Shown here piece by piece: positions 1 through 53,418 of a stretch of 64,000 nucleotides of DNA. Source of the stretch: a virus. Lineage: Duplodnaviria; Heunggongvirae; Uroviricota; Caudoviricetes. Every line of letters starts with the position of its first letter. Position 1 is the stretch's first letter. The notes under the pieces were generated by a model, which did not search any database, was not told the DNA's origin, and saw only the letters and a list, made by a program, of their open reading frames with translations. A program made the position numbers and the translations under genes. The stretch is from the IMG/VR virus record IMGVR_UViG_3300021255_003500, positions 9,962 to 73,961 of that record. The stretch is one strand, 5' to 3'.

Positions 1-2714
1 CATCAAGTTTCCGTGCAGCATATCGTGATTTATCTTTAGAAAATTGGGATCGCGGTTATGAAATCTGGCAAGGATTGGGAAAAGACGAGAATGGCTTGCC
101 AGCACTGGGAGATTTGCAAGCTGCTTTTGCCAATCCAGATCAACAGCTTTACCTGGAAGCATTTTTCGAAAATGTTGAAGGTGGATCTGAAATATTACAA
201 AAGTTAGCAAGCGGAGCTGAGATTTAGGCCGAAGACATGAGAAAGTTTAATGCTAATGCACAGGCACAATATATAAATAATTGGAAAAAGTTTGGCTCTG
301 CTACAGATGGCGTAACAAACAAAATAAAGCAACTAGGCGGTTCAGCGTAGGAAGTTGCAAGCGCTGTTGGTCAAATGAACCAAGAGATGACACAAGCTTC
401 TCACAATCAATTTTACAGAAATGCTTGGCGCGCAGGAAAAAGAGATAGCCGGACACTTGCTGGCGTTAAGCAATTAACAAAGCTTGATCTGTCTGACGCT
501 GACATGAAATCTGGTTTATTTGATTCGCTGATTGAAAGTTCTTTACAAAGCACAGAGAATGCAGATTTGGCTATGTATCAAAACTGGGCAAATGTAGTTG
601 CTGAAAACCTTGCGCAATCTTTAACAAAAGCGTGGGATCAGGAAGCAGGCACGATTGACTTAGGTAACGGACTTAGTATTTCTTTGGATTCTCTTACGAA
701 TGGGTCTTTGGATATTGGTGAAATCGACGGTGCTTTAGCATCGATGTTAGATCCAGCTTATCAAGGTATCCTTGCTGCATTGCAATCATTCCTTGTTTCT
801 GGCGCACTGGTTATTACTGCAGATGGTGAAAATATCAAGGCGGAAATTAAGGTGGATGACATTGGACAAACTGCACGCAAGCCAGGTGGCGGTGGCGGAG
901 GCGGCGGAGGTAAATCCGCAGCCCAGAAGCTGATCGAAGAGCTGAAGCATCAGAAGGAGCTCAGTGATCACCGGCTGAAGATGCTGCAGTTCCAAGAAAC
1001 AAAGTATGAGAATGCTGGACAATGGCTGAACCTCAACGCTATGCTTGGCGAAGAGAATAACCTGCGTCGGACGATAATTACCGAGTCCGAACAAGCTATC
1101 GAACGGTTGAAGCAGCAGATGGCTTCAACTGCCCAAGGCTCTGACGACTGGTACAGCCTGCGCGATTCTATCCTTTCCTACGAAGAATCTATTGAAGAAT
1201 GCAACAACGCTATAGCAGAGAACACTAAGAAGATGCGGGAGAACTGGCAGACTGCCAGGAAGACCCGGATCGATCTGGAAGGTACGGTGGAACAGGAGAT
1301 CCAGGCTCGCATCGAAAGATACCGCAGCATGGTGGAAGGTACTGTTTCCATGCAAGATATCATTCTGGACGCTATCCGGCAGAGATATCAGGATGAATGG
1401 GAGCTGCTTTCCAAGGATATCGAGAAAAAGAAGGAAGCCCTAGAAGAAGAGAAGAACCTGATTGAGGAACGGCTAAACAAGCGTAAGGAAGCTGAAGATG
1501 AAGCGGAGAAGTATGAAGAACTGGCGGAGCTTCGCAGGCAGTATGCACTGATCTCAATGGACAGCACCCGTACAAAGGATGCCGCTACGCTGCGTGAAAA
1601 GATCGAGGAGCTGGAAAAGGATCTTGCCTGGAAGATCGCAGAGAACGAAAGCCAGGCACAGCAGGATGCGATTCAGGATCAGATCGACGCTTATGGCGAA
1701 TACCAGAGCAGTACAGAAGAAGACCTGAACGTTCTGCTGGAGGATGCCAATAACTTTGCTGATGAAGCCAACACCGTGCTGAAGATGAAGCAGGAGGATC
1801 TGTTTGCTTGGCTGAAGGCGAACGTCAAGGACTATGCCAATAGTCTGGACGCTGCGCAGACTTCCCTGCTGCTCAGCTGGGAAGATACCTACAAGCAAAT
1901 GTATGGCATCACCGATACCTGGTGGACAGAGATCAACGCGATCCTCAGCAGCGAGACAAGCTTTATCGAGTACATGAAGCAAAGCGAAGACTATAAGAAT
2001 GCTTCCGAAATGGACAAGCAGTATATGGTTGTCGAATGGGAAGATATGTACCGTGCTTATTTGGAAGCTTTCAAGGAAGGCGCAACTTATTTCCATGATG
2101 ACAATTGGCTGCTTACCTCTGGTACTGGAGCCGGTGGCAGTGGCAGTGGTGGAGGTAATCATAACGCAGATGAAGGAACGTCAGAAGAAAGCGAATTCCT
2201 TAACAAAGACTATAAGGATTTTAAAGATAAAACTTTCTCGGATATGTTTAAGGATATGTTTGTTGTATATGCAGAAAATTCTCGATACAGTAATGACAGC
2301 CTTCAAACTATGGAAGCTCTGCCTACAAAAAACAACAACAACGATACTACAGGTATTATTGATCAGAAGCGATTAAAGAAAAATGCCTCCGGTGGTCTTG
2401 TTGACTACACGGGTCTCACCTGGGTCGACGGAACTTTCAGCAAGCCAGAAGCTTTCCTGAGCGCAGACGACACTGCTCTGATGCGGGATATGCTGGACGC
2501 TGCTAAGTATATCAAGCTGAACCCATTCATCAGTAATATCGACAGTGCCAGCTTCAGCGGTAAGGGTTTCTCAGTCGGTGACGTGAACATTACCATTACG
2601 GAAGCGCAGTTCAAGGATGATGCGGATTATGAGCAAGTAGCGGAGCGGGTTGGCCAGGCGTTCCTGAAGGAGCTGAACAAGCAAGGAATGAACATGGCGA
2701 ACTACTCGTTCTGA
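1..2714 (+). CDS. Tail tape measure protein. 5' end lies outside the window. Frame 0 is open from nt 3 and contains in-frame TAG codons at 225-227 and 348-350.
   Basis: Long coiled-coil, Ala/Gln/Glu-rich protein with a Gly9 linker, positioned immediately upstream of Dit. Ends with TGA. The upstream in-frame translation ...KQLGGSA(TAG)EVASAVGQMNQEM... is continuous protein-like sequence. Confidence 0.8.
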
Positions 2715-4436: not shown

Positions 4437-4448
4437 GGAGGTGAAGGG

Positions 4449-7400
4449 GTGCTTCGATACAAACGAAACCTGGCGTTGGATATCTTTGACTATGCTGGAC
4501 ATAAGATCTGCAATCTGTATGACAACAGCGGAGATATCAATGGACAGGCTACCAACGTGGTGGTAACCACAGAGCGCAACGGATGGAAGGAGCTTTCCTT
4601 CACTATTCCATCCGTTTGCGAAAACGCTGACGGCAGTCAGGAGGACAACTTCCGGGTCGATCTGCTGAAAGCGGACTATCGGATCCGGTTGATAGACGAC
4701 GATGGAACGGACTGGTATATCATTTCTGAACCTAAGATCGTTCACAATAAGGCGATGAAGAGTGTCAGCGTGACAGCCGGACATATCGCCCAGCTGCTGA
4801 AGACGAAGAACCTTGGACTGGAATTCTAGGACGAGGAAGGGAACAACGTTGGAACAGCGGAGGAGCTGCTGACAACCATTCTGGATGGTACAGGCTGGGA
4901 GCCAGGAGAAGTTGCTACCTTTAAGGAAAAGATGAGCGGCGCCGTGAAGTACAGAAGTCTGAAAGCTTCCGCAAAGACAGGCGCGTTCAAGCTGATCTCC
5001 AACATGTGTGATCTGTTTGAGGCTAAGCCGATTTATCACGGTGATACAAAGAAGATCGACATCGTTCCCATGAACCCGTTCTCCGAACCAGAAGACGGTT
5101 CTCTGCCGGATATTGCAGACGAAAAAAAGTCCAAGGTGATTGAGCTTCGTTATGGCAACAATGTCAAGAACGTTACACGAACGCTGAACACAGAGAACCT
5201 GGTGACGAAGTTGTATGCCTACGGTGCTTTCGGTGATAAAACCAGCGGTTACTGCGGCATCGACGAATGGGTGCACAATGAGTACATCCTGCAGCTGAAC
5301 AATGACGTTCCGGCGGGCAAGGAGTGCGTGCTGGAGATCACCAACGAAGCAACAGGGATCACTTGGAAGCGTTACTTCACGCCGTATGAAGACTTAACAG
5401 TCGGTACGCAAGTGATCTGGTCCGTACTGGATCCTGCGTCCATGAGCTATGTCTGGAACGAAGACGCCGAGCACGCCTATCCGGTTTATCAGAAGCGTAC
5501 ACAGGATGAGCCAGCAGCAACAACATTGGTGGAGACGCAGTCTGTTACCAACTATTTCTCTTTCCTGATGGACTTCGACTATTATCGGGAAGTAGATCTG
5601 CTGACAGACGAGATGATCCAGACGATCGCAGAATACCAGCGTAAGATGCCGGAGCTGCAGCGGATCGTATCAGAGAAAGCAACCCTGTTTGCAGAGAAAC
5701 TGACAGAGCTCAGCGAGATCGTTGGCAGCGGCAACTTCTGCAAGCTGGCGATCAGTGACTATGCCAACAATACAGGCTATCTTCGTCTGACCCTGGATCG
5801 ATCAGAAGACCCGAAGGGTGCGATCTACCGAACGGACTACACGGTCCGGGAGAACAAGCAGTTCAAGTGGCGTGAAGCTGAGAAGCTGAAGGAGAACGGA
5901 GACCCGCTGAATGACGCGGCGTCGATCGTCTATATCATTCATGATCGGAATCCTCTGTCTTACGATACTGCTTATATCAAGGAGATCGAATGGGAGGAAG
6001 GCGATGAGAAGCGCGAGAAGCCGGTTGCTTTTACCCTTTGGCTGCCCTTCACGGAAGAATACCTGGAAAACTTCTCAGATAACCATGTATTCCTGTTTGC
6101 CAGTCACACGGTGAACGGACGGCTTGGCGCTTATCAGACAGCGGACGAGGCTGCGAAAGCCGCGCTGGAATCCACGACCAAAGTGGTTACGGAAAGACAT
6201 CCGGTGTACTTCTCCCCTACCACACCAGACATTGCCATCGAGAATATCCAGGGTTATGCCTGGTGGTGGAAGTACAACAACACGGGTGCGCCATCGGAAA
6301 TGTATTTTTGCTATCGCTACAGCGACTCTTCCGAGTATGCCAGCAGAATCACAGAAGGCGACACCCGGTGGTACCGCATGCATTTCGACAGTACTTTTCC
6401 TATTGCCGCAGCCAAGGACTATTTCTACAACTGGAAAGAGGCGGTCCTTTATCGACTGAACACCGACAACGAGTGGGTCAAGTATAATGAGCGTTCTTCC
6501 GCAGAAGACCGTATGGTTGCCAAGCTTGGATCGATCTTCCGAAGCTGTCAGACGAGAGACGCGCTGTATAACGGCGAGTATCAGTACTATACCGTGGAGC
6601 TGGACACAGATCTGCCAGTTGGCAACTATGCCTTTGCTGACAACTATGGGAATTATTACGCCTTCACCACCAAGACGCCGCTGACTGCCAATGACAAGCT
6701 GGTTTACGATACGACAGAGCGCTGGGTGATCGCAACAGCAAAGTCAAACGATGTCGAGGATATGACCAAGGAAGAGATCATCGACATGACGCTGGAAGCA
6801 AAGGACTATCGTTTTGACAATGTCTATATGCATGCAGCCAATGTGGTTGGCAGAACAGTCTGGGAACCGGGCGCACTGGAGATCATCGAAGGCGCTACCG
6901 TAGAGACAGAGGACTCTGAAAAATACCGTTCTGGTTTCTGCCCCGTATATTCGAACATCGAATATCAGATCAGCGGACTGGCCGGAAACATTGATGTTTA
7001 TACGTACACGATCAACCGCACTTTCCAGGATCATCGGGTGATCAACGCTGTGAATGGCACGATGACAACACCGAACAACTGCCGGTTCATGCGGTTTGTT
7101 TATAACCCGACAGCCAACAATTATACGCCCAGCGATATCCAGAAGTATCTGAACGTAGCAGCGCTGAGCAAGGATAATGCTTTCGTGGTGGACGAGAAGG
7201 AATACCTGCTTTTGCCGCAGCCAAGTGAAGGCAGTGGAGAACTGAAAGGCATCATCCCTTTGACAGGGAAATTCCTGGCAACCGCAGACGAAGCGTTCCT
7301 ATCCGCCAAAGTCATCATGGAACAGGCACAGGCGGATGTGAAAGAGCTGGAAAGCAGACTGGTAAACGATCTCGGAGAGATGTATCGGGAAGGCTACTGG

Positions 7401-8615
7401 CAGAAGAGCGACTATGTGGACGGCGACGAAGAGAAGCTGTACAACGACGCGCTGGAGAACCTGGAAGAGATCGCATTCCCGGAAGCCAAATATCAGGTAG
7501 GCTATCTGGATCTGTATGGCACAGAGCAGCCAGACTTTGGCGTTACAGAGCTGACCAGTGATGTTTTGTGGCCGGATATCAGCATTGACTACGCGGTGCA
7601 TCTGATCGACGACGAGATCGGGATCAGCAAATGGGCGTTCATCGATAAGCTGTCCAAGTGTTATGACCAGCCGTGGAAGACCACGCTGACGCTGAATACA
7701 AAGCTCAGTACCATCGGGCAGCACAGCTTTACGGATGTCATGACCCATATCGCAGAGGTAGCCAATCAGGTGAAAGGCAAGATCGAGGTCTACAACCGGG
7801 CAGAAGTGGTCAATTCTACCGGTCAGGTAGCAGCGGAGATCCTGGAAGGAACCATCGACGCCAACCGGCTGATGATCACCGGAGGCTCCTCTACCTGGTA
7901 TACGGACGACCGGGGCAATCTGATGTTCCAGAGCGCGGATGGCAAGTCTGCCATGGCGATCACAGGCAACGGCTTTGCCATAGCTAACAGCAAGGATGAA
8001 TGGGGCGACTGGGTATGGCGCACCTTCGGTACAGGAGACGGCTTCTCGGCAGACATGATCGTAACAGGTTTCATGTAGGCAGAGCGGATCCTTGCCGGAA
8101 CGATCACTGCCAGCAAGCTGGCTTCCGATGTTGGCGCCAGTCTGGACGTAAGCTCCAATGAGTCTCTGAACCTGGTGGTTGGCGATGCAGTATCCAGGAT
8201 CCGGATGACCGATGAAGAGATCGTCAGCACGATCATGGAAAGTTCACGGTATCAGGCAGACAAGGAAGCTCTGATCGGCAGTGCTGTGCAGCAGACAACC
8301 TCTAACCTGGCGGTTCGTTTCAACACGATCGAGGCGCAGCAGGCGGTTGTCGATGGCAAGATGGAAACAATCAACAATGTGGAGTCCTGGTTCAAGTTCA
8401 ATAACGATGGGACTTTTGACATCGGAAAGTCCGACAGTCCGTTCAGCGTCAAGCTTGGCACCGAAAAGCTTCAGTTCATGAAAGACGACAAAGAGATGGC
8501 GTACTTCCAGAACAATACGCTGTATAACACAGCAGCGGAAATTTCCAATAGGCTGAAGCTTGGCAACTTTACCATAACGGTAACAGACGACGGCGATACG
8601 TTGGTTTGGAATTAA
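4449..8615 (+). CDS. Tail-associated/tail-tip protein (Tal-like), 1388 aa. It reads through in-frame TAG codons at 4827-4829 and 8076-8078.
   Basis: Track ORFs 4449..4829, 4932..8078 and 8175..8615 are all in frame 0. The gaps 4830-4931 and 8079-8174 have no other stops, and the sequence across the TAGs is protein-like (...GFM(TAG)AERILAGTITASKLASDVGASLDV...). The N-terminus resembles the prophage tail endopeptidase N-domain. True stop is TAA at 8613. Confidence 0.75.
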
Positions 8616-19240: not shown

Positions 19241-19336
19241 ATGATCACGAAGACAAAACGAATCATTGCTTTTATTCTGGCTGTCGCTTATTCCGCAATG
19301 CTGATCGGAACTGCAGTTCTTGGGATGCTTCGTTGA
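19241..19336 (+). CDS. 31-aa hydrophobic membrane peptide (MITKTKRIIAFILAVAYSAMLIGTAVLGMLR).
   Basis: AAGGAG RBS 8 nt upstream. One predicted TM helix. Sits directly before the endolysin. Confidence 0.35.
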   Translation: MITKTKRIIAFILAVAYSAMLIGTAVLGMLR

Positions 19337-19343
19337 GCCGGTG

Positions 19344-20138
19344 ATGACAATGGCTGTATCAGCAAAAGAATTCTCCATGCAGGGAGATAAGTATCTTGGT
19401 CGGCCTTACAGTGAGATGGATTGCCAAGCTTTCGTGGAACAAATGATGTCGGATGTCGGCATCAAAACGGATCTGAAAGGATCCAACGCCTGGTTCAGAA
19501 AGGTAACGTGGGTTGGAACACCCGAGGAATGCAAAGCCAAGTTTGGATAGATCCCGGTGGGGGCTCTCCTCTTTATCTGGAAAGATGACGGAGGAGAGAT
19601 CCCCCGGGGGTATAAGGACGGACTTGGCAATGCTTCGCATATCGGTGTCTACATTGCTCGCGAAGAAGGTGCGATCCATTCCAGCAGCAGCAAGCACAAG
19701 GTATGCTACAGTAAGTTCTCTGGCAAGAGTATTAAAGGTGGCTGGAACAGAGTTGGCTTATGGGATCGCTTCGATTACGGGCAGCACATCAACCAAATAC
19801 TGAACCAGGACTCAAATCAAAATGAAAGGGATGAGAGTCCTATGTTATATACTGGTATTATCACATCTTCCAACGGAAAGGGAGCCAACCTGCGATCAAA
19901 GAAATCCACTAGCTCCGATCTGATTGTCAGGATGGGAGAAGGCGACAGCGTTGAAGTGCTCGAAGACAACGGCAGCTGGCTGAAGGTTACATATGGAACC
20001 TATACCGGCTACGTGCTGAAGAGCCTGGTTGCTCAGGCGGACTACGAGAAGGAGACCACGCCTGTTACCGTAACTCTGCCGTACAATATTGCCCTTGAAC
20101 TGAGAGACGCCCTCATCAATGCGATGGGGGTGGGTTAA
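19344..20138 (+). CDS. Endolysin with an NlpC/P60 (CHAP-like) cysteine peptidase domain and a C-terminal SH3b domain. In-frame TAG at 19548-19550.
   Basis: Track ORFs 19320..19550 and 19557..20138 share frame 0 and are separated only by TAG. The catalytic Cys (SEMDCQAF) lies upstream of the TAG and the His (NASHIGVY) downstream. The SH3b-like C-terminus reads GANLRS...WLKVTYGTYTGYVL. Confidence 0.7.
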
Positions 20139-20139
20139 A

Positions 20140-20496
20140 GTGGAGAACTTAACGCTTGACAACCTCAAAGTAGCTGTCCTGGTGATCCTTGGGGTCATGG
20201 CGCTGCTGGTGTCGGTGGAGAAAGGTATCGAAGCTTTTCATAAGCTTTTCAGAAAGCGCTCTGAGGATCTGCAGCAGTAGCAGAACCAACGGATCAGCAC
20301 ACTGGAAACCAGAGTGGCTTCCTGTGAAAGCAGGCTGACCCGTGGCGACGAGAAGTTTGCTTCCATTGAGGAAGACAACAAGCAGATGCTTGTAGCGCTA
20401 AACGCAATGCTGATGCATATGATCAGCGGAAACGATCACGCAAAGCTGACCAGCGTCAAGCAGCAGCTCGATCAGTATCTGGCATCCAGAAGGTGA
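20140..20496 (+). CDS. Lysis-cassette membrane protein with an N-terminal TM helix and a coiled-coil tail. In-frame TAG at 20278-20280.
   Basis: Frame 1 is open from GTG 20140 through the TAG to TGA 20494. Contains LKVAVLVILGVMALLVSV then EDLQQ(TAG)QNQRISTLETRV.... Confidence 0.5.
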
Positions 20497-21061: not shown

Positions 21062-22039
21062 TCAAGCATTGATAGCTTTATACATATCTTCGAAGGCATC
21101 ACCATAAAGATTGATGTAAGTATTGTAGGTAACTGTCGTGCTGGAATGACCGAGGATCTTGGACAGGATCTTGACATCCATGCCCTTATAGTAGCAGTTG
21201 GTGGCGAAGGTGTGGCGCAGAGCGTGCTCACCGTAGTAAGGAACCATAGCCAGAGAGCAGAGCTTCTTGGTTTGGTAGACCAGCGCTGCGTAGGACAGGC
21301 GTTCTCCCCTGCTTTGGAAGACCCATTCGGTGTCAGAGAGGGTTCTGGCCTTCATCAGCAGCTCAATGGCATGCTTGGTCAATGGTACGATACGCACACT
21401 GGATAAGGATTTTGGAGATTCCTGGATGTAGGCGTTGGTTTTGTGCATCAGGTTGACAACGGTAGCGCCAATCCGGATGCGGCAGCGGCTGACATCTACG
21501 TCCTTCCAGCGAAGAGCCAGTGCTTCTCCTACCCGAAGTCCTGTTTCGATAATGAATCCGATGCAGATAGCTCCGATACCGCCATCAGCATCCAGGACGG
21601 AAGCCAGACGGGCCTGTTCCTCTTTGGTATAAGCCTGGATATCCTTCTTCTGCTTCTTGATGTTGGTAGGCGCAGGGAGATTTACGCCTACGGTAGGATC
21701 ACTTTGGATGATCCGCATGGCAGCTGCCTGCTTGAGCGGCGCTGTCAGCAGACGATACTGCTTCTGGATGGTGGTCAGGCTGTATCCGTCGTCTGCGAGA
21801 CGATTGAGGTACAGCTGCACATCGAAGAATGTAATCTCTCCCACGGGTTTCTGGGAAATCGGGTACTTTTCCAGGGCCTTGAAGGATGTAACCAGCCTCT
21901 GGTAGGAAGAGGGCTTGATGGCTGTGCGTTTGAATGTCGTCAGCCAGACATCGATATACTGCGAGAGAGACATTGATGCTTGCAACATGGTATATTTTCC
22001 TTTCTCTCGCTCGAATCCTATGCTGTTGTCAAGGTTCAC
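21062..22039 (-). CDS. int: Tyrosine site-specific integrase.
   Basis: C-terminal R..HxxR..Y catalytic motifs (HALRHTFATNCYYKGMDVKILSKILGHSSTTVTYNTY). Convergent with the late operon. Confidence 0.9.
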   Translation of the reverse strand: MNLDNSIGFEREKGKYTMLQASMSLSQYIDVWLTTFKRTAIKPSSYQRLVTSFKALEKYPISQKPVGEITFFDVQLYLNRLADDGYSLTTIQKQYRLLTAPLKQAAAMRIIQSDPTVGVNLPAPTNIKKQKKDIQAYTKEEQARLASVLDADGGIGAICIGFIIETGLRVGEALALRWKDVDVSRCRIRIGATVVNLMHKTNAYIQESPKSLSSVRIVPLTKHAIELLMKARTLSDTEWVFQSRGERLSYAALVYQTKKLCSLAMVPYYGEHALRHTFATNCYYKGMDVKILSKILGHSSTTVTYNTYINLYGDAFEDMYKAINA

Positions 22040-26110: not shown

Positions 26111-26194
26111 CGCGGTGTGAAGGATTTGAACCTTCGGAGCCAACGGCTCAACGGTTTTCAAGACCGCCGCAATCAACCGCTCTGCCAACACCGC
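26111..26194 (-). tRNA. tRNA-Ser (anticodon UGA). Class II tRNA with a long variable arm and G73.
   Basis: GCGGTGT / TTGGCAGAGCGGTTGATTGC / GCGGT-CTTGAAA-ACCGT / variable arm GAGCCGTTGGCTC / GGTTCAAATCC. Confidence 0.8.
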
Positions 26195-26200
26195 AAAGGG

Positions 26201-26285
26201 CGTGGAGTAGAGGATTTGAACCTCTGGAGGCTTCCACCTCGACGGTTTTAGAGACCGCTGCAATAAACCGCTCTGCCAACTCCAC
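26201..26285 (-). tRNA. Amber suppressor tRNA (anticodon CUA). It is a tandem paralog of tRNA-Ser(UGA), with a long variable arm and discriminator G73.
   Basis: GTGGAGT / TTGGCAGAGCGGTTTATTGC / GCGGT-CTCTAAA-ACCGT / variable arm GAGGTGGAAGCCTC / AGAGGTTCAAATCCTCT / ACTCCAC-G. The loop CT-CTA-AA gives anticodon CUA. Confidence 0.8.
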
Positions 26286-27750: not shown

Positions 27751-27986
27751 CACTTGCCTCCCTGACATTCCCGGATATGAAGCCACTCATCCAGGTACTG
27801 GTTGAACTCTTCGATCGTCTTGTTGTACTTTGCAGCAAGGCATTTTTCACAGGTTGGGCGTTCCTTCAGCGCATTGCAGCAGCGCTCATCCCACTTGTTC
27901 AGTCGCTTTTTGCAGATGTGGCAGTGCCATTCGGTCCACTGCTGCATCTTCGTCTCTCGCATGTTTGCCATCAGATCACCGCTCAC
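27750..27986 (-). CDS. Small Cys-rich (Zn-finger-like) protein.
   Basis: CHIC...CC...CEKC pattern. Confidence 0.45.
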   Translation of the reverse strand: MSGDLMANMRETKMQQWTEWHCHICKKRLNKWDERCCNALKERPTCEKCLAAKYNKTIEEFNQYLDEWLHIRECQGGK

Positions 27987-34715: not shown

Positions 34716-35336
34716 TTACAGAATTTCGCTAAGCGTGTGCACGATCTTGTGCGTAACCTTGTTCTCCAGGCAGTAGTCAGCGTCGATGGTCCAGTCGTTG
34801 TTGCGCTTCTTGTTCATCATGGTCTTCGGGATCTCCGTGCGGTCCATGATGAACTCCTTCATCCGCTTCAGCTCCTTACGGTAGCTTTCGGTGGCGTCCA
34901 TGACCTTGACCGCATCGCCGGCCATCTGCGCGCTGCCCTCGTGAATGATCACTTTGGCCCGGGGAAGCATCCAGCGTTCGTGTCCTGCCAGGAAGATCAG
35001 CGCCGCAGCCGATGCCGCAACACCCATGTTGATGGTGATCACAGGCGTTTCGGAAAGCTGGATGGTATCAACGATGGACCACATGTAATCCAGGTCTCCG
35101 CCATAGGACATGATGTAGACCTTGATCGGCTTCCGTTCGTTCACGGGCTTGCCTTTGTCTTCCATGTTCCAGCGAAGGATCATGCGCTCTAGGACCATGC
35201 TGTCCTGACCGATATCACTTTCCAGATAGATCTTACGATCCTTTTCCAGGATGTAGTAGGAAAGCTCATCCGGAGAGGGCAGCGGAGAGGCAGGGATTTC
35301 GATGGCTTCACAGAGTTCGGTCAGCATTTCGCTCAT
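34716..35336 (-). CDS. clpP: ClpP-family serine protease.
   Basis: Motif GVAASAAALIF...HEGSAQ matches the ClpP active-site region. Confidence 0.65.
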   Translation of the reverse strand: MSEMLTELCEAIEIPASPLPSPDELSYYILEKDRKIYLESDIGQDSMVLERMILRWNMEDKGKPVNERKPIKVYIMSYGGDLDYMWSIVDTIQLSETPVITINMGVAASAAALIFLAGHERWMLPRAKVIIHEGSAQMAGDAVKVMDATESYRKELKRMKEFIMDRTEIPKTMMNKKRNNDWTIDADYCLENKVTHKIVHTLSEIL

Positions 35337-36254: not shown

Positions 36255-36704
36255 TTAGGCAAAAAGCTGCGGATTCCGCCTGGCATACTCGGCGATCAGC
36301 AGCGCCTCCGCCATGCCATCGGAGGGCTTTTTGCAGCGGGGTGTCGGAAGCAGATTCACATCCGGAAACAGCCGTTTGCATACGTCGATGGACTGCTGTT
36401 TGTCCGAATGCAGATCAAACTCCTTCTTCCAGCGCTGCGGCGGTACCAGGATATATGAAATATGGTAAGCGCTCAGCACGCCTTCGATGAAGCCGGCAGA
36501 CTTTCCGAAGTTAAACATGGAAACAACGCCTTGTCCTGGCATCGCGCCAACCTTTTCCACACAGGCGCAGACCTCCTGCCCCTGTATCTAAAGCAGTCTC
36601 TCCACAAACGCACCATTGTCCCACGGAAACACCGCAGGCGGAGCACCACAGAAGAGCGCGGCGAAGCCGCCCTTCGCACCGGGATCAACACCAAGATAGA
36701 TCAT
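36255..36704 (-). CDS. RuvC-like Holliday junction resolvase (phage type). In-frame TAG at 36588-36590.
   Basis: Upstream extension of track ORF 36255..36560 through the TAG gives N-terminus MIYLGVDPGAKGGFAAL, which is the canonical RuvC start with catalytic Asp. The C-terminus has DGMAEALLIA. Confidence 0.65.
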
Positions 36705-36711
36705 CGGCACC

Positions 36712-39300
36712 TCACAGATGCAGAACCCGGTCGCGAATCTCTTCCGTCCGGCCGGCGTTCCAGAAATTGGTTCCTATGTAGCCGCAGGTACGCCGCGCCA
36801 CGTTCAGCTTATGCTGGTCTGCATTGCCGCAGTTCGGGCATTCCCATATCAGCTTGCCGCTGTCATCCGGCACGGTCCTGATCTCCCCATCGTAGCCGCA
36901 GACCTGGCAGTAGTCTGACTTCGTGTTGATCTCCGCATACATGATGTTGTCATAGATGTAGCGGATTACATCCAGCACAGCCTCCAGATTGTCCTGCATG
37001 TTCGGCACTTCCACATAGGAGACGGCTCCGCCCGGGGAAAGCTTCTGGAACTTAGCTTCGATGCGCAGCTTGCTGTAAGCGTCGATGGGCTCACGAACAT
37101 TGATATGGTAAGAATTGGTAATATAATTGTGGTCGGTGACTTCCGGGATGATCCCGAAGCGCTGCTGCAGACACTTGGCAAACTTGTAGGTCACAGACTC
37201 AATGGGTGTACCGTAGACGCTGTAGTCGATATGCTCCGCAGCCTTCCACTTGGCGCAGGCATCGTTCAGCTTCTGCATCACCGACAGACCAAAGGGCATG
37301 CCTTCCTCTTCATCCGTATGGGACTTGCCTGTCATGTACTTGACGCACTCATACAGGCCGGCATAACCCAGGGAGATGGTGCTGTAACCGTTGTACAGCA
37401 ATTCGTCAATGGTATCGCCCTTCTTCAGCCTGGCCAGAGCACCGTACTGCCAGAGGATCGGCGCCACATCGGAGACGGTTCCCTTCAGGTGGTCATGCCG
37501 CAGACGCAGCGCACGATGGCACAGCTCCAGACGATCCTCCAGGATCTCCCAGAACTTCTCCATATCCCCGCCGCTGGACAGAGCCACGTCCACCAGGTTC
37601 AGAGTGACGACACCCTGGTTGAAGCGCCCATAATACCGGTGCTTGCCGGGGACATAGTTCTTGGCGTTGGAGATATTGCCGATGCCGCGATCTGTGAAGG
37701 TATCCGGCGTCAGGAAGGAACGGCAGCCCATGCAGGGATAGGTATCGCCCTGCTTGTATTCCCGCATCTTCTTCCGGGAGATATAGTCCGGTACCATCCG
37801 CCTGGCGCTGCACTTCGCGGCCAGCTTGGTCAGATACCAGAACTCGGTATTGGGCGCCGTGTTGTTCTCATCCAAGGCATAGATTAGCTTCGGGAAAGCC
37901 GGTGTGATCCAGACACCCTGTTCATTCTTCACGCCTTCGAAGCGTTGACGCAGCACCTCTTCGATGATTTTTGCCAGATCCTGACGGGTCTGACCGGGCT
38001 CCACCTCGTTGATGTCCATATAGACCGTGATAAAAGGCGCCTGACCATTGGTGGTCATCAGGGTTACCACCTGATACTGGATGGTCTGCACACCACGGCG
38101 GATATCCTCTTCCACCAGCTTCTCGATGAAGGCGCGGTAGGCAGCTTCGCCCAGATGCTCCACCAGATGCGCATGCTCTGCCAGCAGCTTGACCCGGGTC
38201 TCCTGCACAAAGGGAGCCAGGTGCGCCAGAGTAATGGTCTGTCCGCCATACTGGCAGGAGGCAACCTGAGCGATGATCTGCGTGGCGATGTTACAGGCTG
38301 TGGAGAAGCTGTGTGGCTTCTCGATCAGGGTGCCGCTGATGACGGTGCCGTTCTGCAGCATGTCCTCCAGGTTCACCAGATCACAGTTGCCGGTGACCAT
38401 GTCATCCGCCAGGGTGAAGGAGTGTGTCACGGGTTCCACCACGCACCAGGCCTTGCGTGTCTTCTTATGATCGGGCTCGATCTTCACCACGCGCCAGGGC
38501 GCGCACCAGCCCAGGACATTGCCCACCCGCAGATCCGTGGTTTCGCTGCCGTCCTCCAGCAGCCAGCGGTGATCTGGGGTACAGATGACAACCTTCTCCG
38601 TATCGATCAGGCGGAAGGTCACCTTCTGCATCCGCTGCATGCCGAAGCAGCGAACCACCGCAACCTTGCGTTCCCCATTCTTGTCGAAGACATCTACCAG
38701 ATCCAGGTCTTTGAACTCGTCAAAGCGCTTGTCTCCCTCGGCAGTCTTGAACAGGGTGTCGCCGGAGAAACAGTTGTGGGACGGCTGGATGAAGTAATCC
38801 GCGTCATGGAAATGGATCACGCCTTCGTCATGCGCCTTCAGCACATCGTCCGGCAGCAGCTTGCGGCGGGTCAGATCCTTGGAAACCTCGCCGGCAATAT
38901 AGTCACGCTGCGTGGGAATGATCTCCGGGTTCTTATTGGAGTTCTCCTGCTTCACGTTCTCGTTCTGATAGCTGACCAGGGCCATCACCGCATCATCGAT
39001 GGTATTGCTCTGGCGCTTCAGCGCGTGCTGGTAGCGGTACTTGATGTAACGCCGGGCCAGATCCGCCTTGCCAAGCTCGATCAGCGCGTCCTCCACCATG
39101 TCCTGGATCTCTTCCACGGGGATCGCACGATTCATTTGCTCGCATTTACCCACGATCAGGTTGACGACGAATTCCAGAGAGTTCGGCTGCAGTTTGCCTG
39201 AAACCTCCGGCACCTCATCGTTGGCACGCTTGATCGCATTGCGGATCCGTGAAGCGTCGAACACCACCTCACGGCCATCCCGTTTGATGACTCGTTGCAT
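36712..39300 (-). CDS. nrdD: Anaerobic ribonucleoside-triphosphate reductase (class III) containing a mini-intein.
   Basis: ATP-cone N-terminus VIKRDGREVVFDASRIRNAI. C-terminal Zn ribbon plus glycyl-radical motif RRTCGYIGT. Internal Hint-like insert. Confidence 0.85.
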   Translation of the reverse strand: MQRVIKRDGREVVFDASRIRNAIKRANDEVPEVSGKLQPNSLEFVVNLIVGKCEQMNRAIPVEEIQDMVEDALIELGKADLARRYIKYRYQHALKRQSNTIDDAVMALVSYQNENVKQENSNKNPEIIPTQRDYIAGEVSKDLTRRKLLPDDVLKAHDEGVIHFHDADYFIQPSHNCFSGDTLFKTAEGDKRFDEFKDLDLVDVFDKNGERKVAVVRCFGMQRMQKVTFRLIDTEKVVICTPDHRWLLEDGSETTDLRVGNVLGWCAPWRVVKIEPDHKKTRKAWCVVEPVTHSFTLADDMVTGNCDLVNLEDMLQNGTVISGTLIEKPHSFSTACNIATQIIAQVASCQYGGQTITLAHLAPFVQETRVKLLAEHAHLVEHLGEAAYRAFIEKLVEEDIRRGVQTIQYQVVTLMTTNGQAPFITVYMDINEVEPGQTRQDLAKIIEEVLRQRFEGVKNEQGVWITPAFPKLIYALDENNTAPNTEFWYLTKLAAKCSARRMVPDYISRKKMREYKQGDTYPCMGCRSFLTPDTFTDRGIGNISNAKNYVPGKHRYYGRFNQGVVTLNLVDVALSSGGDMEKFWEILEDRLELCHRALRLRHDHLKGTVSDVAPILWQYGALARLKKGDTIDELLYNGYSTISLGYAGLYECVKYMTGKSHTDEEEGMPFGLSVMQKLNDACAKWKAAEHIDYSVYGTPIESVTYKFAKCLQQRFGIIPEVTDHNYITNSYHINVREPIDAYSKLRIEAKFQKLSPGGAVSYVEVPNMQDNLEAVLDVIRYIYDNIMYAEINTKSDYCQVCGYDGEIRTVPDDSGKLIWECPNCGNADQHKLNVARRTCGYIGTNFWNAGRTEEIRDRVLHL
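38386..38772 (-). mobile_element. Putative mini-intein (about 129 aa) in NrdD. It begins CFSGDTLF and ends ...MVTGN, followed by +1 Cys.
   Basis: Hint block A (CFSGDTLF) and block B-like TPDHRWL. The flanking extein reads ...FIQPSHN | CDLVNLEDM. The terminal residue is Asn but the penultimate is Gly rather than His. Confidence 0.45.
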
Positions 39301-39323
39301 TTGGGATCATCCTTTCTTAGAAG

Positions 39324-39483
39324 ATATATATCGGAAAAACCCCCTCGGAACAACGGCCCAGATACGTCAGGTCCAGGTTCTCCATATCCGTCACGGTTAC
39401 AGAGAGCTTACCCCGCGCATCAATCTCGTCATCGGCGATGACAACACCGTGTTCCCAGCTGGTTTCCCATGCATAAATATACA
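39324..39483 (-). CDS. Hypothetical small protein (about 53 aa).
   Basis: ATG with GGAGGT upstream. Under 60 aa. Confidence 0.25.
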
Positions 39484-39523
39484 TAATATGCATTTACCTC
39501 CGTATAATATACAGTCTTTCTTT

Positions 39524-40198
39524 TCATTCCGGCGTGCGCTCTTGCGGCGCCGCCGTGGCTTCTGCCTCCTCGGGACAGATAAAGCGCTGGTATAAATCGT
39601 CGAAGATAACGGGAATCCGTTCATGCGCCCTTTCCAGCAGATCCTTCATCAGCAGACGCATGGGAGGATAAGCGGCGATATCGCAGCGCAGAGCAAAGAT
39701 ATGCCGCCACTCCCGGAGGTTGGCCTTCATGATGATTTTGCAGGCGGTGGAATTCGGCAGGACTTCCCGCGCCTGTTCAGGCTTGGCGCCGTTCTCGATC
39801 ATCTGCTTGTAGGCATTCTCCGCCATGCGCATGGCACTGTGCCAGATGGCGCTGCGTTCGTCCCGGTCATTCCCGTCGTACCAGTCCGGGGCGATGAAGG
39901 TGATGTCGCCGGTCTTGGCTTCCTGGATATAGCGCTGGGATTCCACGCAGAAGGAAGCCAGACGGTGGCGCGTCAGCTCTGCCAGGACCGCCCGGGAGGT
40001 TTCAATCTCCACGGTCATGTCCGCAAACTCCAGCGGGGCGCCATGACCGCGCTTCAGCAGACCGTTCACAAAAGACTCCGCAGAACCCTGAGTGATGCGG
40101 TCCTGGCTGGCGTAGCAGTTGCGGCCTGCGTATTCAATATCCTGCAGCGGCCAGCGGTTGGCGCTGCGGATCATAACTGATTGTTCCTTGATGATCAT
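39524..40198 (-). CDS. thyX: Flavin-dependent thymidylate synthase.
   Basis: RHRxxS motif (TRHRLASF). Confidence 0.8.
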   Translation of the reverse strand: MIIKEQSVMIRSANRWPLQDIEYAGRNCYASQDRITQGSAESFVNGLLKRGHGAPLEFADMTVEIETSRAVLAELTRHRLASFCVESQRYIQEAKTGDITFIAPDWYDGNDRDERSAIWHSAMRMAENAYKQMIENGAKPEQAREVLPNSTACKIIMKANLREWRHIFALRCDIAAYPPMRLLMKDLLERAHERIPVIFDDLYQRFICPEEAEATAAPQERTPE

Positions 40199-40554
40199 TA
40201 CGTCGCCTCATTTCTCGAAATCGGCGCAACAGAAAAGACAGGCTCTTCGCCCGTCATCAGCTGCGGCACCGTCGTACCGGTATGAATGTGCATTTTGCGG
40301 TCGTGGTTCAGACGCTGCAGCTCCTGTGTGATTTCCTTCACGGAGAGCCTGGTCGCTATCACCTGACCGTTATCCAGGATCACCAACTACCTGGTCAGAT
40401 CTTTTCCGGAGCCGATGATCAGACGCTTTTCTCTTTTCTCCTGCTGGTAAAGCTCTTTTGCCTGACGCATAGACATGCCAAAAACAGTCATGATCCGATC
40501 TGCGTTCACCGCCAGCTCATTCTAAAGGTATATAAAACGAATCGGATATTCCAT
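40198..40554 (-). CDS. Hypothetical protein (about 118 aa) with two in-frame TAG codons (40387-40389 and 40522-40524).
   Basis: Upstream extension of track ORF 40198..40386 gives continuous protein-like sequence ...IIGSGKDLTR(TAG)LVILDNGQVIA.... The track ORF would otherwise start at TTG directly after the TAG. Confidence 0.5.
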
Positions 40555-40572: not shown

Positions 40573-40887
40573 TTAAAAGTCAAAGTCCAGATCCGAATAA
40601 ACAGATACGACGCCTTCCACCGATTCACCAACGGAGCCTTCATCCCAGGCATGATGATGCACACCGTACATCATACCCGGCATGGTGGTTCCCAGATGGT
40701 TGTTGTCGGCATCGTAATGTTCCAGTTCAGAAAAGATGCCGGGGGTGGAGCGTCCTGTATAGGCGCCATGCTCATCGGAATGAACATAGCCGCCCAGCAG
40801 GCCTGGCCAGCTTTCGCCAACCAGGTCGCCGTGCTCGTCATAGTGCTTGATGTTGCCAAACAATCCAGGCACAGAGGTAATCTTCAT
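40573..40887 (-). CDS. Small protein with four repeats of a roughly 20-aa unit (PG.FG...HYDEHGxxxGxSxPG).
   Basis: Internal repeats visible in the translation. Confidence 0.45.
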   Translation of the reverse strand: MKITSVPGLFGNIKHYDEHGDLVGESWPGLLGGYVHSDEHGAYTGRSTPGIFSELEHYDADNNHLGTTMPGMMYGVHHHAWDEGSVGESVEGVVSVYSDLDFDF

Positions 40888-42395
40888 GCAGCATTCTCCT
40901 TTTCTGTTAACTCGTGCAATGTAAACTCGTCCAGATAACAGTCTTCCTTGTCAGAGATCAGAGTTCTGTGTCCTCCATGGAAGGCATAGCGCTTGGCCTT
41001 ATGCCACTTCTTCAGAAGGATGAACTGACCCTGTTTGAGCCCGCTGTCCGCGTAAGCTCGCTTGGTCATCTTCATTGTGCCGCTGACACCACGGCGCACG
41101 TTGTACAGCTTCAGCCGCACGCCATAGAGATCGTCCAGCTCCTCCACAAAGTACAGGTTGGAATCCGCATAAGGATCAAAGCTGGAGCAGCGCATGACAT
41201 ACATATTCTCTGCGGACAGGATCTCTTCGATTGGCAGCGGAAAGTCGTCCATCTTCGCTTCCATATCCGTCAGCGCAGAAAGGCGCTTGGTCTTCGTCTT
41301 CTCGGACAGAGTCTTGGTCAGCTTGGATGCGCCGTTGTAGTATTCATCGAACAGCTTCATCAGCTTTCCGCTTTCTCCATAGTCGGAGAAGTACCCGAGC
41401 TTGATCAGCACAGCGATCTGCCGGGTATTGACAGACGTATTGTTCTGCAGATAGTAAAGCACCTGAATAAAGCTGTCAAAGTATTCCCTGCCAGCCTGAT
41501 ACAGCGCTTCCGCAGCTGTCGCAGAGATGAACTTGATGGAATGCAGGCTCTGGGAGATGGTCTTGGCAGACTTGTTGACCAGCCAGTCGCGGTTGTCCTC
41601 GCCGAAATGTCCCGGTGTGACCCGGATTCCCAGATACCTTTTCATTTCCCGGATGATCAGGGCGATCTTTTCCTTGTTGCCCTTCTCTGTGTACAGCTTG
41701 AGCATGGTCACGTAGAATTCGTAGGGATAATAGGCTTTCAGCCAGGCCGCGTACAGAGAATCACAGGCCATGCTGAAAGCATGAGCGGCACAGAACATAT
41801 AGCTGGCTGCGTCGTTGATGATCGTCCAGATCTTATCGACGATGTCCGCAGCTTCCTGATCAGTCGCTCCTTCCTCTTCCTTCAAGCGCTTCGTAAAGCC
41901 TTCCTCGAAACGCTGGCGGAAGGAAGCGACCTTGTCCGCCTTCTTCTTCTTAATGGCCTTCACACAAACATACGCATCGGCAGGAGGGATATTAGCAGCT
42001 TGCAAAACGTGTAAAATCTGTTCATCGTAGAGTAAAAACGAATCTGGTATCTCTTTTGTCTGCAACAGTTTATCCAGAGAAGGAATACCATAGTCAAATC
42101 TGTTTCTGGAAATAAAGGTTTCCAGCATGGACTTGAAGCCAGGTCGTACAGCAGCTACGAAAGCAGCCAGTTCCACCACGTTCTTCGGTTTATACCGCAT
42201 GACCCGTTCGGTGGTCTTCTCCTTTTCACACTGATTCAGACCCAGGGTGAAGCCGTATTCGTACAGCTGCCAGACCTTCGGGTCATCCTTCACCTTCTCC
42301 AGCAATTCGTCCACCGGCATCACCGGCTGACCGATCGCTTCAAATGCTGCGGCAATGGTCTTGACGACATCGACGCGCAAGTAATCCAATGATAC
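40884..42395 (-). CDS. dnaE: DNA polymerase III alpha (DnaE-type), exon 2 (C-terminal part).
   Basis: Motif MFCAAHAFSMACDSLYAAWLKAYYPYEFY corresponds to the DnaE FNKSHSAAYA...WLKAHYP region. The exon boundary at 42395/42396 is inferred from the omega-G and reading frame. Confidence 0.7.
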   Translation of the reverse strand, partial: VSLDYLRVDVVKTIAAAFEAIGQPVMPVDELLEKVKDDPKVWQLYEYGFTLGLNQCEKEKTTERVMRYKPKNVVELAAFVAAVRPGFKSMLETFISRNRFDYGIPSLDKLLQTKEIPDSFLLYDEQILHVLQAANIPPADAYVCVKAIKKKKADKVASFRQRFEEGFTKRLKEEEGATDQEAADIVDKIWTIINDAASYMFCAAHAFSMACDSLYAAWLKAYYPYEFYVTMLKLYTEKGNKEKIALIIREMKRYLGIRVTPGHFGEDNRDWLVNKSAKTISQSLHSIKFISATAAEALYQAGREYFDSFIQVLYYLQNNTSVNTRQIAVLIKLGYFSDYGESGKLMKLFDEYYNGASKLTKTLSEKTKTKRLSALTDMEAKMDDFPLPIEEILSAENMYVMRCSSFDPYADSNLYFVEELDDLYGVRLKLYNVRRGVSGTMKMTKRAYADSGLKQGQFILLKKWHKAKRYAFHGGHRTLISDKEDCYLDEFTLHELTEKENAA

Positions 42396-43420
42396 CCTCG
42401 GTTTCCCGATATTTATGAGGGGTTTAGACTATCTCTTCATCCACTAGGGATGTGTGGCACTTCGACAACAAGAGTTTCACTTGCTGTCTACTTCCTTCCG
42501 GAATAGTCGTTACACCTTACTCCTACTGGAGTCTTGGCACGGTATTAACATGCAGCATAGCAACAATTTCATTTGTTCTTTGTGCAATATCTTCATCAAA
42601 TCTGATTTCAAACAGAGGGATGTGATGCTCAGCACAAAACGTTCGTTTCAAAGGATCTGTTATCTCTCTTTCATATGTTCCAAATTCTGGATAATACGGA
42701 TCGACACGGTAATGTTGAATGCCTTGCATTTCAATCGCCGCAATTATGTGATTGTCAGTATCCAATATTTGGAAATCAAACAATGGGTATGTCCCATTAG
42801 GAGTTTGTAGTTCTTCATGTCTCTTATTTTGTTTGAAACGAATGTTGTTTTGCTAGAGTATCTCTCCGATAATCTGTTCTCCTCTGCTTTTCACACAACC
42901 GCAGCTTTGTGTTTTACCGGAACGCAGTTGCCAACCTTCTACGACAGCCTGATTACCACAATCACAAACACAATCCCACAAGATTTTATGCTGTCCTGCG
43001 CTGGTTATATTTGTTCCATGATATCCTGTAACTGTCAGTTTTCCAAAACGCAAACCAGCCATATCCCGGATAGGTTTATGAAAGTTTTCTTTTTGCTGGC
43101 AACCACAAGAAACTGTAGTCTATTGACGAAGACTCTGCCCAGAAACAACAGTCGTATTACCACAAACACATTGGCACATCCACATTGTTCTGGGTTTCCC
43201 GCTTGGTAAAATGTGATCTGGAGCACGGTATAAAACCGTAAGCCTCCCAAATTGTTTACCGGTTAAGTCTTGAAACTTAGGCATCATACCACCTCCTAAC
43301 ATCAATATGATATTGTTATGCTGTTTAGTCTTTACCGTTAGCGCACATAAGTGCACACCCTACATGTGTAGGTTCACCACATTATCCTATCCATATTGCT
43401 ATGGCAGGGGCCAATTATTT
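42396..43420 (-). mobile_element. Group I intron (IA2, T4 td-like) interrupting dnaE, with an ORF inserted in the P6-loop position.
   Basis: R-like AACGACUAU and S-like AAGAGAUAGUCU elements form P7. A P8 helix and the 5' GGCC/P2/P3-like AACGUGGUAAACC region are present. Homologous to the second copy at 52137..52404, with compensatory helix changes. Confidence 0.65.
42517..43293 (-). CDS. Intron-encoded putative homing endonuclease. It has tandem Zn-ribbon modules (FGRLTV...W.C.C.CGN...SCGC, twice) and a C-terminal Vsr/DUF559-like PD-(D/E)xK region. It contains three in-frame TAGs (43120, 42853, 42523).
   Basis: Track ORFs 43120..43356, 42853..43062 and 42523..42783 all end in TAG and share one frame. 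Readthrough joins them. ATG at 43293 with RBS AGGAGGTG. Confidence 0.5.
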
Positions 43421-52136: not shown

Positions 52137-52404
52137 CCTCGGTTTCCCGATATTTATAAGGGGAGTAGACTATATCTTCATCTGTATAACAGATGCGTGG
52201 CACTTCGAAGTACCGAATTTCACAGTACTTCTACTCCATAAAGGATAGTCGTTACACCTTACTCATTGCTGAGTCTTGGCACGGTATTGACTTGCGCTAT
52301 GAGAGCGTTTAGTGTTTTACCGTTAGCACAGCATTGCTGTACACCCCATATGTATGGGTTCACCACGTTATCTTATATCCTCACGGATATAAGGCCCTAT
52401 TCTT
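52137..52404 (-). mobile_element. Compact group I intron (td-like, about 268 nt, no internal ORF).
   Basis: About 170 nt of the 3' core and about 90 nt of the 5' part are shared with the dnaE intron. UAACGACUAUCCUUUAUGGAGUAG and GAAGAUAUAGUCU closely match the T4 td P7/P3/P8 region. P1 covaries (exon GCCU/intron GGGC here, versus GGCU/GGCC in dnaE). Confidence 0.6.
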
Positions 52405-52548
52405 AAGGCATTTGTCCATTCTTTCCACCAACCAGCTTCGAAATGAACTTATTGATCGCAGGATATTGTTCGTAAGAGTTGATCACGCCAGACTTTGCAC
52501 CATCAATCCCTTGCTACTGTATGTTTCCATACAGAGTAGACTGTATCA
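52405..52548 (-). CDS. Exon 1 (48 codons, one in-frame TAG at 52513-52515) of the intron-split gene. It is preceded by a 3-codon mini-ORF (MSL) whose UGA stop overlaps this exon's AUG (AUGA).
   Basis: ORF MIQSTLYGNIQ(TAG)QGIDGAKSGVINSYEQYPAINKFISKLVGGKNGQMP ends exactly at the inferred 5' splice site. Upstream RBS AAGGAGAGA. Confidence 0.4.
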
Positions 52549-52591: not shown

Positions 52592-53278
52592 TCAGTTGGC
52601 GCCACGGGATTGCCTTGCTCGTGTATTGTGGTGATTAGCTGCACAATACTCATCCCATCCTTCTACTTCAACGAAGCGCCAGGAACGATTGCTTCTTATT
52701 GCGTTGATGTTTGCACGAGAGATGTTGTATTTTTCAGCTAAATCATCCCATGATATATTAGCCATAAGATCCTTTTTGATTTCTGCTACTTGGGTTGCTG
52801 TAAGTTTTGTTGTTTTCATTGGTTCTTCGTTGAGAATTTTATGAATTCTGGTCGCAATCATTTTATCGCTCATCCCTTCCGGGCGTTTTTTGCCAAGACG
52901 AGTACGCGACATTTTGGCTTTCGTTTCTTCGGAAGCTTTCTTTCCAGTATTTAATCGACGATTCAGTTCACCGAGTTCTTTGCGTCTGTATTCCGGCAGC
53001 GGGACGCCGTGTGCTCCAGCTCCTCCGTCGGCGATGTTACAACAATGCCCAACTTCGCGAGCTTTAGCAATGTATTCAATTTCTAAATCGTCTAATAAGC
53101 TTTCGTCTTCAACTGATTTTAATACTGAAAATTGAAAAGCTTCTTCTCCATACTTATTATACGAAGATTGCAACCATTTGTTATCATGCTGGTTAGTTCT
53201 TAACTTCCAACGATGAAAACAATAGCGTTTTTCAAAAGACTCTCTTGTCTGACCAACATAAACCAAACCAGAAATCAA
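52592..53278 (-). CDS. GIY-YIG homing endonuclease with a C-terminal NUMOD/HTH DNA-binding domain.
   Basis: ISGLVYVGQTRESFEKRYCFH matches the GIY-YIG motif. C-terminus has TKLTATQVAEIKKDL...SRANINAIRSNRSW. Confidence 0.7.
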   Translation of the reverse strand: MISGLVYVGQTRESFEKRYCFHRWKLRTNQHDNKWLQSSYNKYGEEAFQFSVLKSVEDESLLDDLEIEYIAKAREVGHCCNIADGGAGAHGVPLPEYRRKELGELNRRLNTGKKASEETKAKMSRTRLGKKRPEGMSDKMIATRIHKILNEEPMKTTKLTATQVAEIKKDLMANISWDDLAEKYNISRANINAIRSNRSWRFVEVEGWDEYCAANHHNTRARQSRGAN

Positions 53279-53418
53279 GTTTCGGATCTCATAAATGCCT
53301 ATCTAATTACGATAGATATCTTCGTTGACGAAATGCATCATATGATCACCACCTTTCATTTGTAATACACGAGTTTAGGGTTTCCCCGTTATTCGGAGTT
53401 CAATAACATGTCGCCATG

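Follow-up and report, generated by a model that had tools for sequence, protein, structure and literature searches.

Genes interrupted by TAG in the replication module

The analyzed stretch (the window, 64,000 nucleotides, positions 9,962 to 73,961 of the IMG/VR record IMGVR_UViG_3300021255_003500) belongs to a tailed phage with a genome of about 107 kb. Within its replication module, a RuvC-like resolvase gene and a RemA-like gene harbored in-frame TAG codons, and the phage encoded a tRNA with the cognate CUA anticodon, by which these codons are almost certainly translated as serine. The two genes and the block between them were located as follows (ORF, open reading frame).

36255..36710, minus strand: RuvC/MOC1-like Holliday junction resolvase gene, 151 codons, one in-frame TAG (36588-36590)
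36712..40198, minus strand: nrdD, a 58-codon ORF and thyX, all without TAG, between the RuvC-like and RemA-like genes
40198..40554, minus strand: RemA-like gene upstream of thyX, 118 codons, in-frame TAGs at 40522-40524 and 40387-40389

By sequence membership, the product of the first gene is a RuvC/MOC1-like Holliday junction resolvase. PHROG 1770 ('Holliday junction resolvase') covered residues 2-146 in one stretch over the TAG (E=6e-32), and the family profile matched the RuvC-type resolvase MOC1 over positions 3-144 in a PDB profile search (E=3.7e-12). Homologues were numerous (3,713), and the full-length ones (144-151 amino acids (aa), 60-69% identity) aligned from MIYxGxDPG through the TAG site. 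The initial annotation had described a RuvC-like gene with a TAG at 36588 and had staked this on RuvC homology in the N-terminus (MIYLGVDPG...); the N-terminus aligned with the homologues and the homology ran uninterrupted across the TAG, confirming the gene. The TAG is codon 41, in a variable loop. Three residues were invariant in 30 RuvC-like sequences, and since D9 is encoded upstream of the TAG while E52 and D131 are encoded downstream, a functional enzyme needs read-through. As in known RuvC/MOC1 resolvases, the profile match extended over the whole length and the GxDPG, VEK and DGxAEA motifs were kept; the protein differs in being short (~150 aa), in belonging to a phage-type branch for which a Pfam search gave no match, and in being encoded by a gene interrupted by a sense TAG.

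The RemA-like gene matched the Pfam family PF04025 with 34.2 bits (cutoff 26) over profile positions 5-72 of 73. An exhaustive representative search yielded 26 homologues of 83-207 aa spanning both TAGs (a word-indexed homologue search gave none), and an ungapped alignment to RemA (PDB 7bm2), weak alone (E=0.054), also ran over both. The two TAG columns were Ser-dominated among the homologues (S15/G8/A3 and S12/T10/A3/C1), and the orthologue in a 110.6-kb relative described below displayed Ser at the first TAG site. The earlier description of a 118-aa gene with two TAGs upstream of thyX, within the replication module, was therefore borne out.

TAG never served as a stop codon among the 73 genes called in the window with a self-trained codon model (39 ended in TAA, 34 in TGA and none in TAG), while gene interruptions were always TAG and never TAA or TGA. 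A greedy longest-ORF comparison of genetic codes had been tried and was non-discriminating, since a GC content of 51% allows long shadow ORFs. The frame kept its coding potential to either side of every TAG, although the signal was weak in the homing endonucleases and in the 5' part of the tape-measure gene, and homology crossed the TAGs in a single stretch in the RuvC-like protein, the RemA-like protein, a tail protein, the endolysin and both homing endonucleases. The window was 100% identical to parts of a 107,054-bp ENA contig (ERZ12302814 NODE_188) and to JGI and Logan contigs (three sources, of which JGI and Logan possibly derive from one sample). The TAGs are genuine codons within conserved domains, and the presence of in-frame TAG in replication-module genes is confirmed by continuous homology, stop usage and contig agreement. 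In-frame TAG, lack of TAG terminators and a phage-encoded cognate tRNA, the three features tested for a stop-codon-recoded phage, were all found.

A serine-type suppressor tRNA and the residues aligned with TAG

The amino acid inserted at TAG was approached through the tRNA itself and through the residues found in homologues at TAG sites, most informatively in a tail protein.

26201..26285, minus strand: suppressor tRNA, anticodon CUA (Rfam tRNA 54.3 bits), with a long variable arm and G73
26111..26194, minus strand: tRNA-Ser(UGA), apparent parent copy of the suppressor, adjoining tRNA(CUA)
4449..8615, plus strand: tail protein gene, 1,388 codons, TAGs at 4827 (codon 127) and 8076 (codon 1210)

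The tRNA(CUA) was 79% identical to the neighboring tRNA-Ser(UGA) and 45% identical to the phage tRNA-Leu. Both members of the tandem pair displayed a long variable arm and G73, and their D-arm, anticodon stem and T-loop were identical. The suppressor also had the class II sequence features of tRNA-Ser, namely a length in the 85-89 nt range, a 5-bp variable-arm helix and a G after the acceptor stem. Seryl-tRNA synthetase (SerRS) ignores the anticodon, so the tRNA(CUA) should still be charged with Ser by the host SerRS and is predicted to carry this amino acid. The same strand also bears an Rfam match to the DUF3800-XI sRNA motif (26441-26487, 60.6 bits, gathering score 37.8), some 150 nt upstream of the tRNA(CUA).

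At codon 127 of the tail protein, 11 distinct related IMG/VR contigs carried Ser in nine cases, Thr in one and TAG in one, within the conserved context LEF-S-DxEGNN, and the Ser codons were TCC, TCA, TCG and AGC. At codon 1210, six of eight relatives had Ser, one Lys and one Arg (context G[YF]L-S-AERILA). The Ser codons at the tail TAG sites varied among relatives between TCN and AGY. In this phage the peptides predicted across tail TAG sites read LEF-[S]-DEEGNNVGTAEELL (LEF-x-DEEGNNVGTA with the residue left unassigned) and GFM-[S]-AERILAGTITASK. With both tail sites pooled, Ser accounted for 15 of the 18 sense residues of orthologues and Gln for none. Summed over six homologue TAG columns, log-odds were +6.2 bits for Ser, +0.1 for Thr and -8.1 for Gln. 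The Ser-type body of the tRNA together with the Ser-dominated alignment columns argues that TAG corresponds to Ser and not to Gln, the assignment of genetic code 15; UAG is almost certainly translated as Ser by the phage-encoded tRNA.

Distribution of TAG in the genome and its relatives

Outside the locus and the tail protein, TAG was surveyed in the following genes, together with the putative introns that bear two of them.

1..2714, plus strand: C-terminal part of the tape-measure ORF (first ORF of the window, 75-2714), its start lying beyond the window; two of its TAGs (225 and 348) fall inside
19320..20138, plus strand: endolysin (NlpC/P60 and SH3), TAG at 19548
20119..20496, plus strand: membrane protein gene adjoining the endolysin, TAG at 20278
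21062..22039, minus strand: tyrosine integrase, TAG-free
42517..43287, minus strand: homing endonuclease gene in the dnaE insert, TAGs at 43120 and 42853, 40% GC
42393..42604, minus strand: sequence resembling a group I intron core, at the 3' end of the dnaE insert (RF00028, 18.9 bits)
52592..53341, minus strand: GIY-YIG homing endonuclease gene (Pfam and PHROG), TAG at 53303-53305, two codons before the GIY motif, 40% GC
52146..52415, minus strand: putative group I intron core within a split YonO/RdRP-like gene (parts at 53419-55437 and 51408-52133; RF00028, 42.5 bits, E=3e-8)

The tape-measure frame, whose start lies beyond the DNA covered, was at least 4,113 codons long. TAG occurred in it 22 times, TAA and TGA not once, and stops abounded in the other two frames. 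It extended at least 9.6 kb upstream of the window, where 20 of these TAGs were located. The upstream part had a GC content of about 38-42%, compared to 51% for the window, and contained a triple repeat EFQTKPTS-TAG. Standard-code callers cut the frame into more than 13 'genes'; an interpretation of the upstream region as 13 separate TAG-terminated genes was discarded, as all belong to one frame without TAA or TGA.

TAG density per 1000 codons reached 5.3 in the tape measure and 7.9 in the two homing endonucleases, compared to 0.68 in other late genes and 0.28 in early genes without endonucleases, whose core TAGs were three in number (one RuvC-like, two RemA-like). The tape measure differed from the rest (p=2e-9), and late genes without it did not differ from early genes (p=1.0). 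In the window alone, 1.1% of late-block and 1.2% of early-block Ser-type codons were TAG; equal late and early use, concluded from this window-only statistic, was overturned by the upstream tape-measure extension with its 20 additional TAGs. The claim that recoding is not confined to late genes held for the RuvC-like and RemA-like genes and the endonucleases, yet TAG in this genome is strongly skewed towards late genes, given the 22 or more TAGs of the tape-measure gene alone. TAG-rich genes were those of about 40% GC (50-59% elsewhere), which suggests that the spread of TAG follows composition and weak constraint more than function.

Both endonuclease genes lie in inserts, as the initial annotation had indicated for HNH and intron-encoded endonucleases with in-frame TAG, and PHROG matches and aligned homologues across the TAGs upheld it. 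The endonuclease of the dnaE insert matched PHROG 374/559 (label 'HNH'), with only a weak DUF2726 match in Pfam, and 29 aligned homologues spanned its TAGs; a further TAG at 42523, two codons before the TAA, is ambiguous between sense and stop. The insert separates the PHP/NTPase part of dnaE (43415-45124) from the finger part (40884-42389), with the endonuclease gene in between; exon 1 ends in ...AQGYLKAK and exon 2 resumes at ...LDYLRVDVV. The second insert splits a PHROG 8308 gene into in-order exons and carries the GIY-YIG endonuclease ORF. Rfam RF00028 scores of both putative intron cores were under the gathering score of 50, and the two cores were 75-92% identical to each other in blocks. 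These homologous group I intron-like inserts carry different endonuclease genes, and their common 3' intron sequence translates to PLINIGKPRV in both. The split 675-aa protein (53419-55437 and 51408-52133, minus strand) harbored a DCDGDQ motif, matched the function-unknown family PHROG 8308 (E=2e-146) and weakly the RdRP family PF05183 (E=0.002), and could be a YonO-like single-subunit RNA polymerase.

Tail and lysis genes occupied the first 20.8 kb of the window on the plus strand. From about 26.6 to 64 kb, the minus strand encoded a dense array of replication, recombination and nucleotide-metabolism genes, including PhoH, ClpP, dUTPase, NrdD/NrdG, ThyX, the split DnaE, a primase-helicase, SSB, a Sak-like annealing protein and exonucleases, with seven tRNA genes scattered through it. 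Early genes also encoded a class-V aminotransferase/cysteine desulfurase-like protein, a ClpP-like protease and a pentapeptide-repeat protein (26623-27786, 34716-35336, 62341-63117). NrdD (36712-39300, minus strand) matched its Pfam profile in two stretches separated by an extra insert of ~125-140 aa (residues ~177-300, CFSGDT...VTGNC), which is mini-intein-like and matched no intein family. Megablast against GenBank phages gave no match, and the primase-helicase was at most 32% identical to any GenBank record.

The closest relative, IMGVR_UViG_3300021400_000154 (110.6 kb), encoded proteins 45-75% identical to those of this phage and the same tandem tRNA-Ser(UGA)/tRNA(CUA) pair. Along a 20-kb stretch of its replication block, all 34 ORFs ended in TAA or TGA (TAG 0/34), and four genes carried internal TAG: RuvC (codon 23), RemA-like (codon 17), PhoH (two TAGs) and a 146-aa gene. 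The RuvC and RemA-like TAGs were at codons other than those of this phage, and PhoH TAGs occurred in the relative only. Among 79 IMG/VR loci with a RuvC homologue, it was the only one with an internal TAG. By these shared features, recoding with the tRNA pair is a property of the lineage. Close relatives were retrieved by tail-protein and RuvC queries and were missed by thyX and primase-helicase queries (exact 8-mers required).

Relatives of the suppressor were found with a 15-nt anticodon-arm pattern and a degenerate 35-mer (the exact pattern with C at the D-loop position gave none), and Ser-type CUA tRNAs occurred in a few other viral contigs. In an isolate genome of Anaerovibrio slackiae (NZ_VUNR01000005.1; L136, locus 3248-7863), a Ser-type tRNA(CUA) was located between the small and large terminase genes, and the large terminase and an HNH/antirepressor-like gene each carried one in-frame TAG. 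This locus looks like a recoded prophage and is the only host pointer, with Anaerovibrio as candidate host genus. The chances are about even that these phages form a lineage of ~105-111-kb tailed phages from gut or rumen-type metagenomes, probably infecting Anaerovibrio or other Selenomonadaceae, in which UAG means Ser through a duplicated tRNA-Ser with a changed anticodon. In IMGVR_UViG_3300029705_000100 (L001 9538-9624), a Leu-like tRNA body bearing a CUA anticodon and A73 was found beside a thyX whose product was 59% identical to ThyX of this phage, and many CUA tRNAs of 88-95 nt in IMG/VR contain an additional insertion; several tRNA families seem to have given rise to phage amber suppressors.

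Alternatives, suppressor timing and known recoding systems

Standard-code gene callers split the interrupted genes (P0001, P0241, P0242), which could point to pseudogenes or assembly errors. Such an origin is extremely improbable: contigs from ENA, JGI and Logan do not differ in sequence, TAG is the sole interrupting codon, catalytic residues are retained on both sides of it, coding potential runs on beyond each TAG, and decay is impossible for a tape-measure frame with 22 TAGs and zero TAA or TGA over 12.3 kb. Recoding could also be of the ordinary code-15 kind, with TAG read as Gln as in crAss-like phages, Lak and phAss-1, which is the usual assignment in the literature. This is very unlikely here, as Gln was absent from the 18 residues of the tail sites and accounted for 3 of 158 residues over the six scored columns, and the suppressor has a class II body of Ser type and not of Gln type. 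The suggestion that the host already reads TAG, so that no phage-specific mechanism would be needed, found no direct support; a Ser-type tRNA(CUA) does occur in the A. slackiae genome, but among terminase genes in a prophage-like region, and this phage and its relative each encode their own suppressor. No bacterium is known to reassign TAG to Ser, and a host that reads TAG as sense is hardly to be expected. That the phage reads UAG as Ser throughout its genome, by means of its own altered tRNA-Ser, is likely.

Several observations weigh against this reading or against the drift and timing attached to it. The acceptor-stem pair 2:71 of the tRNA(CUA) is U:A and not the G:C typical of E. coli tRNA-Ser. 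The TAG columns of RuvC and endolysin were variable and not Ser-rich, and one TAG column of the dnaE-insert endonuclease was a conserved Gly (G19/27); such variable or Gly-rich columns neither support nor contradict Ser, and the RuvC column, uninformative on the amino acid, and the Gly column were both kept in the log-odds sum. In the alignments, T, W and a gap of this phage stood opposite TAGs of the relative. RuvC and the RemA-like gene were recoded in this phage and its relative alike; with ~15 shared orthologues, such a coincidence has a probability of about 0.03, which hints at gene-specific retention rather than pure drift. A promoter and terminator scan of the window remained at background (shuffle) level, leaving the timing of the tRNA purely to inference, and the TAG survey covered the window and the tape-measure frame upstream of it, with ~33 kb of head and packaging genes lying outside.

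Serine decoding by a captured phage tRNA probably arose by duplication of the phage tRNA-Ser(UGA) and change of the anticodon of the copy to CUA, SerRS being blind to the anticodon and the copy presumably still charged with Ser. TAG has been dropped as a terminator and would persist as a rare Ser codon where mutation and weak constraint placed it, most commonly in the AT-rich, fast-evolving tape measure and intron endonucleases and occasionally in core genes (RuvC-like, RemA-like). TAG-bearing replication genes would give full-length product only with the suppressor tRNA present. In this phage and its relative, the tRNA(CUA) is co-oriented within the leftward replication array and is therefore probably expressed, and the suppressor made, together with the replication genes. 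Its location on the strand of the replication block favors a suppressor supplied by the phage, probably early or in the middle of infection. Genes with one or two TAGs would undergo at most a modest translation lag. For the tape measure (at least 22 TAGs), per-codon suppression would have to reach at least ~90% for ~10% full-length product (0.9^22 ~ 0.1), and the need for near-complete suppression would mean that, by the late phase, the code is in effect altered.

Late action during infection is known for phage resolvases, T4 endonuclease VII among them, and would suit a deliberate timer, in which selection maintains the TAGs of the RuvC-like, RemA-like and lysis genes and the proteins await build-up of the suppressor. 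This explanation extends the published post-transcriptional switch model, stated in the preprint of Borges et al. (10.1101/2021.08.26.457843), to a resolvase needed at the packaging stage. It draws on the recurrence of TAG in RuvC and RemA-like genes of both phages at different codons, on the single TAG in each of the endolysin and neighboring genes with none in the integrase, and on the 22 or more TAGs of the tape measure. It is nevertheless unlikely, because the TAGs do not sit at conserved positions, their density does not differ between late and early genes outside the tape measure (p=1.0), the highest densities track low GC and not function, the TAG-free integrase is not significant (~0.2 TAGs expected), and PhoH carries TAGs in the relative and none here. 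Phage-supplied serine decoding, with TAGs probably placed more by composition and weak constraint than by function, is retained as the preferred explanation.

If true, stop-codon capture by phages is not tied to Gln or Trp, and any synthetase that ignores the anticodon would be usable; a Ser-reading code from a duplicated tRNA-Ser would show the low cost of such capture. Table-15 pipelines would put the wrong residue (Gln) at every TAG of the lineage, and standard-code callers split RuvC into 40 + 101 aa as they split the tape measure into more than 13 'genes'. The sparse, composition-driven spread of TAG and the purged TAG stops fit the published evolutionary model at an early or minimal recoding stage. 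As the tape measure is heavily recoded here, TAGs in replication genes alone do not challenge the late-gene regulatory model. The initial annotation had set these TAGs against models emphasizing late genes; they are real and indeed lie in replication-module genes, but their novelty is weak, since surveys already report TAG in early genes.

TAG-recoded (code 15) phages include crAss-like phages, Lak, Garnet, Topaz and others (10.1101/2021.08.26.457843; PMC9523058). Like them, this phage displays in-frame TAG in essential genes, TAG-avoiding stops and a phage tRNA(CUA); recoding affects structural and lysis genes and, to a varying extent, replication genes, and spares the integrase. It differs in that TAG means Ser and not Gln, in the sparseness of TAG (11 in ~18,000 codons outside the tape measure, compared to 26-71% of genes recoded in those clades), and in a suppressor that looks like a recent duplicate of a phage tRNA-Ser. 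In phAss-1 (proposed Phassvirus), TAG occurs in NrdG activase and dUTPase genes (PMC10607447). Both phages have a large siphovirus-like genome with a giant tape measure (3,149-3,209 aa in phAss-1, at least 4,113 codons here), TAG in structural and some DNA or nucleotide-metabolism genes, and a tRNA-Sup(CTA) without a dedicated aminoacyl-tRNA synthetase, whereas in phAss-1 Gln was assigned (by tRNAscan and a TerL alignment) and 28% of ORFs are recoded. No nucleotide similarity to phAss-1 was detected. A 2026 survey of jumbo phages reported recoding without preference for protein type.

A serine meaning of phage TAG was absent from the recoded-phage literature covered, in which Gln was assumed or found throughout (many subscription papers were outside this coverage), and appears to be unreported for phages. 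To our knowledge, UAG as Ser is not among the standard translation tables. In mechanism, the closest analogues are T4 psu1+ and bacterial supD, serine-inserting amber suppressors derived from tRNA-Ser; a supD-type strain is mentioned in PMC5571418. As in these suppressors, a tRNA-Ser body with a CUA anticodon would accept Ser and read UAG here. While psu1+ and supD are laboratory or spontaneous mutants suppressing nonsense mutations, the suppressor of this phage is a fixed second gene copy, in a genome that has adapted to it, where no gene stops at TAG and dozens of TAGs are sense codons.

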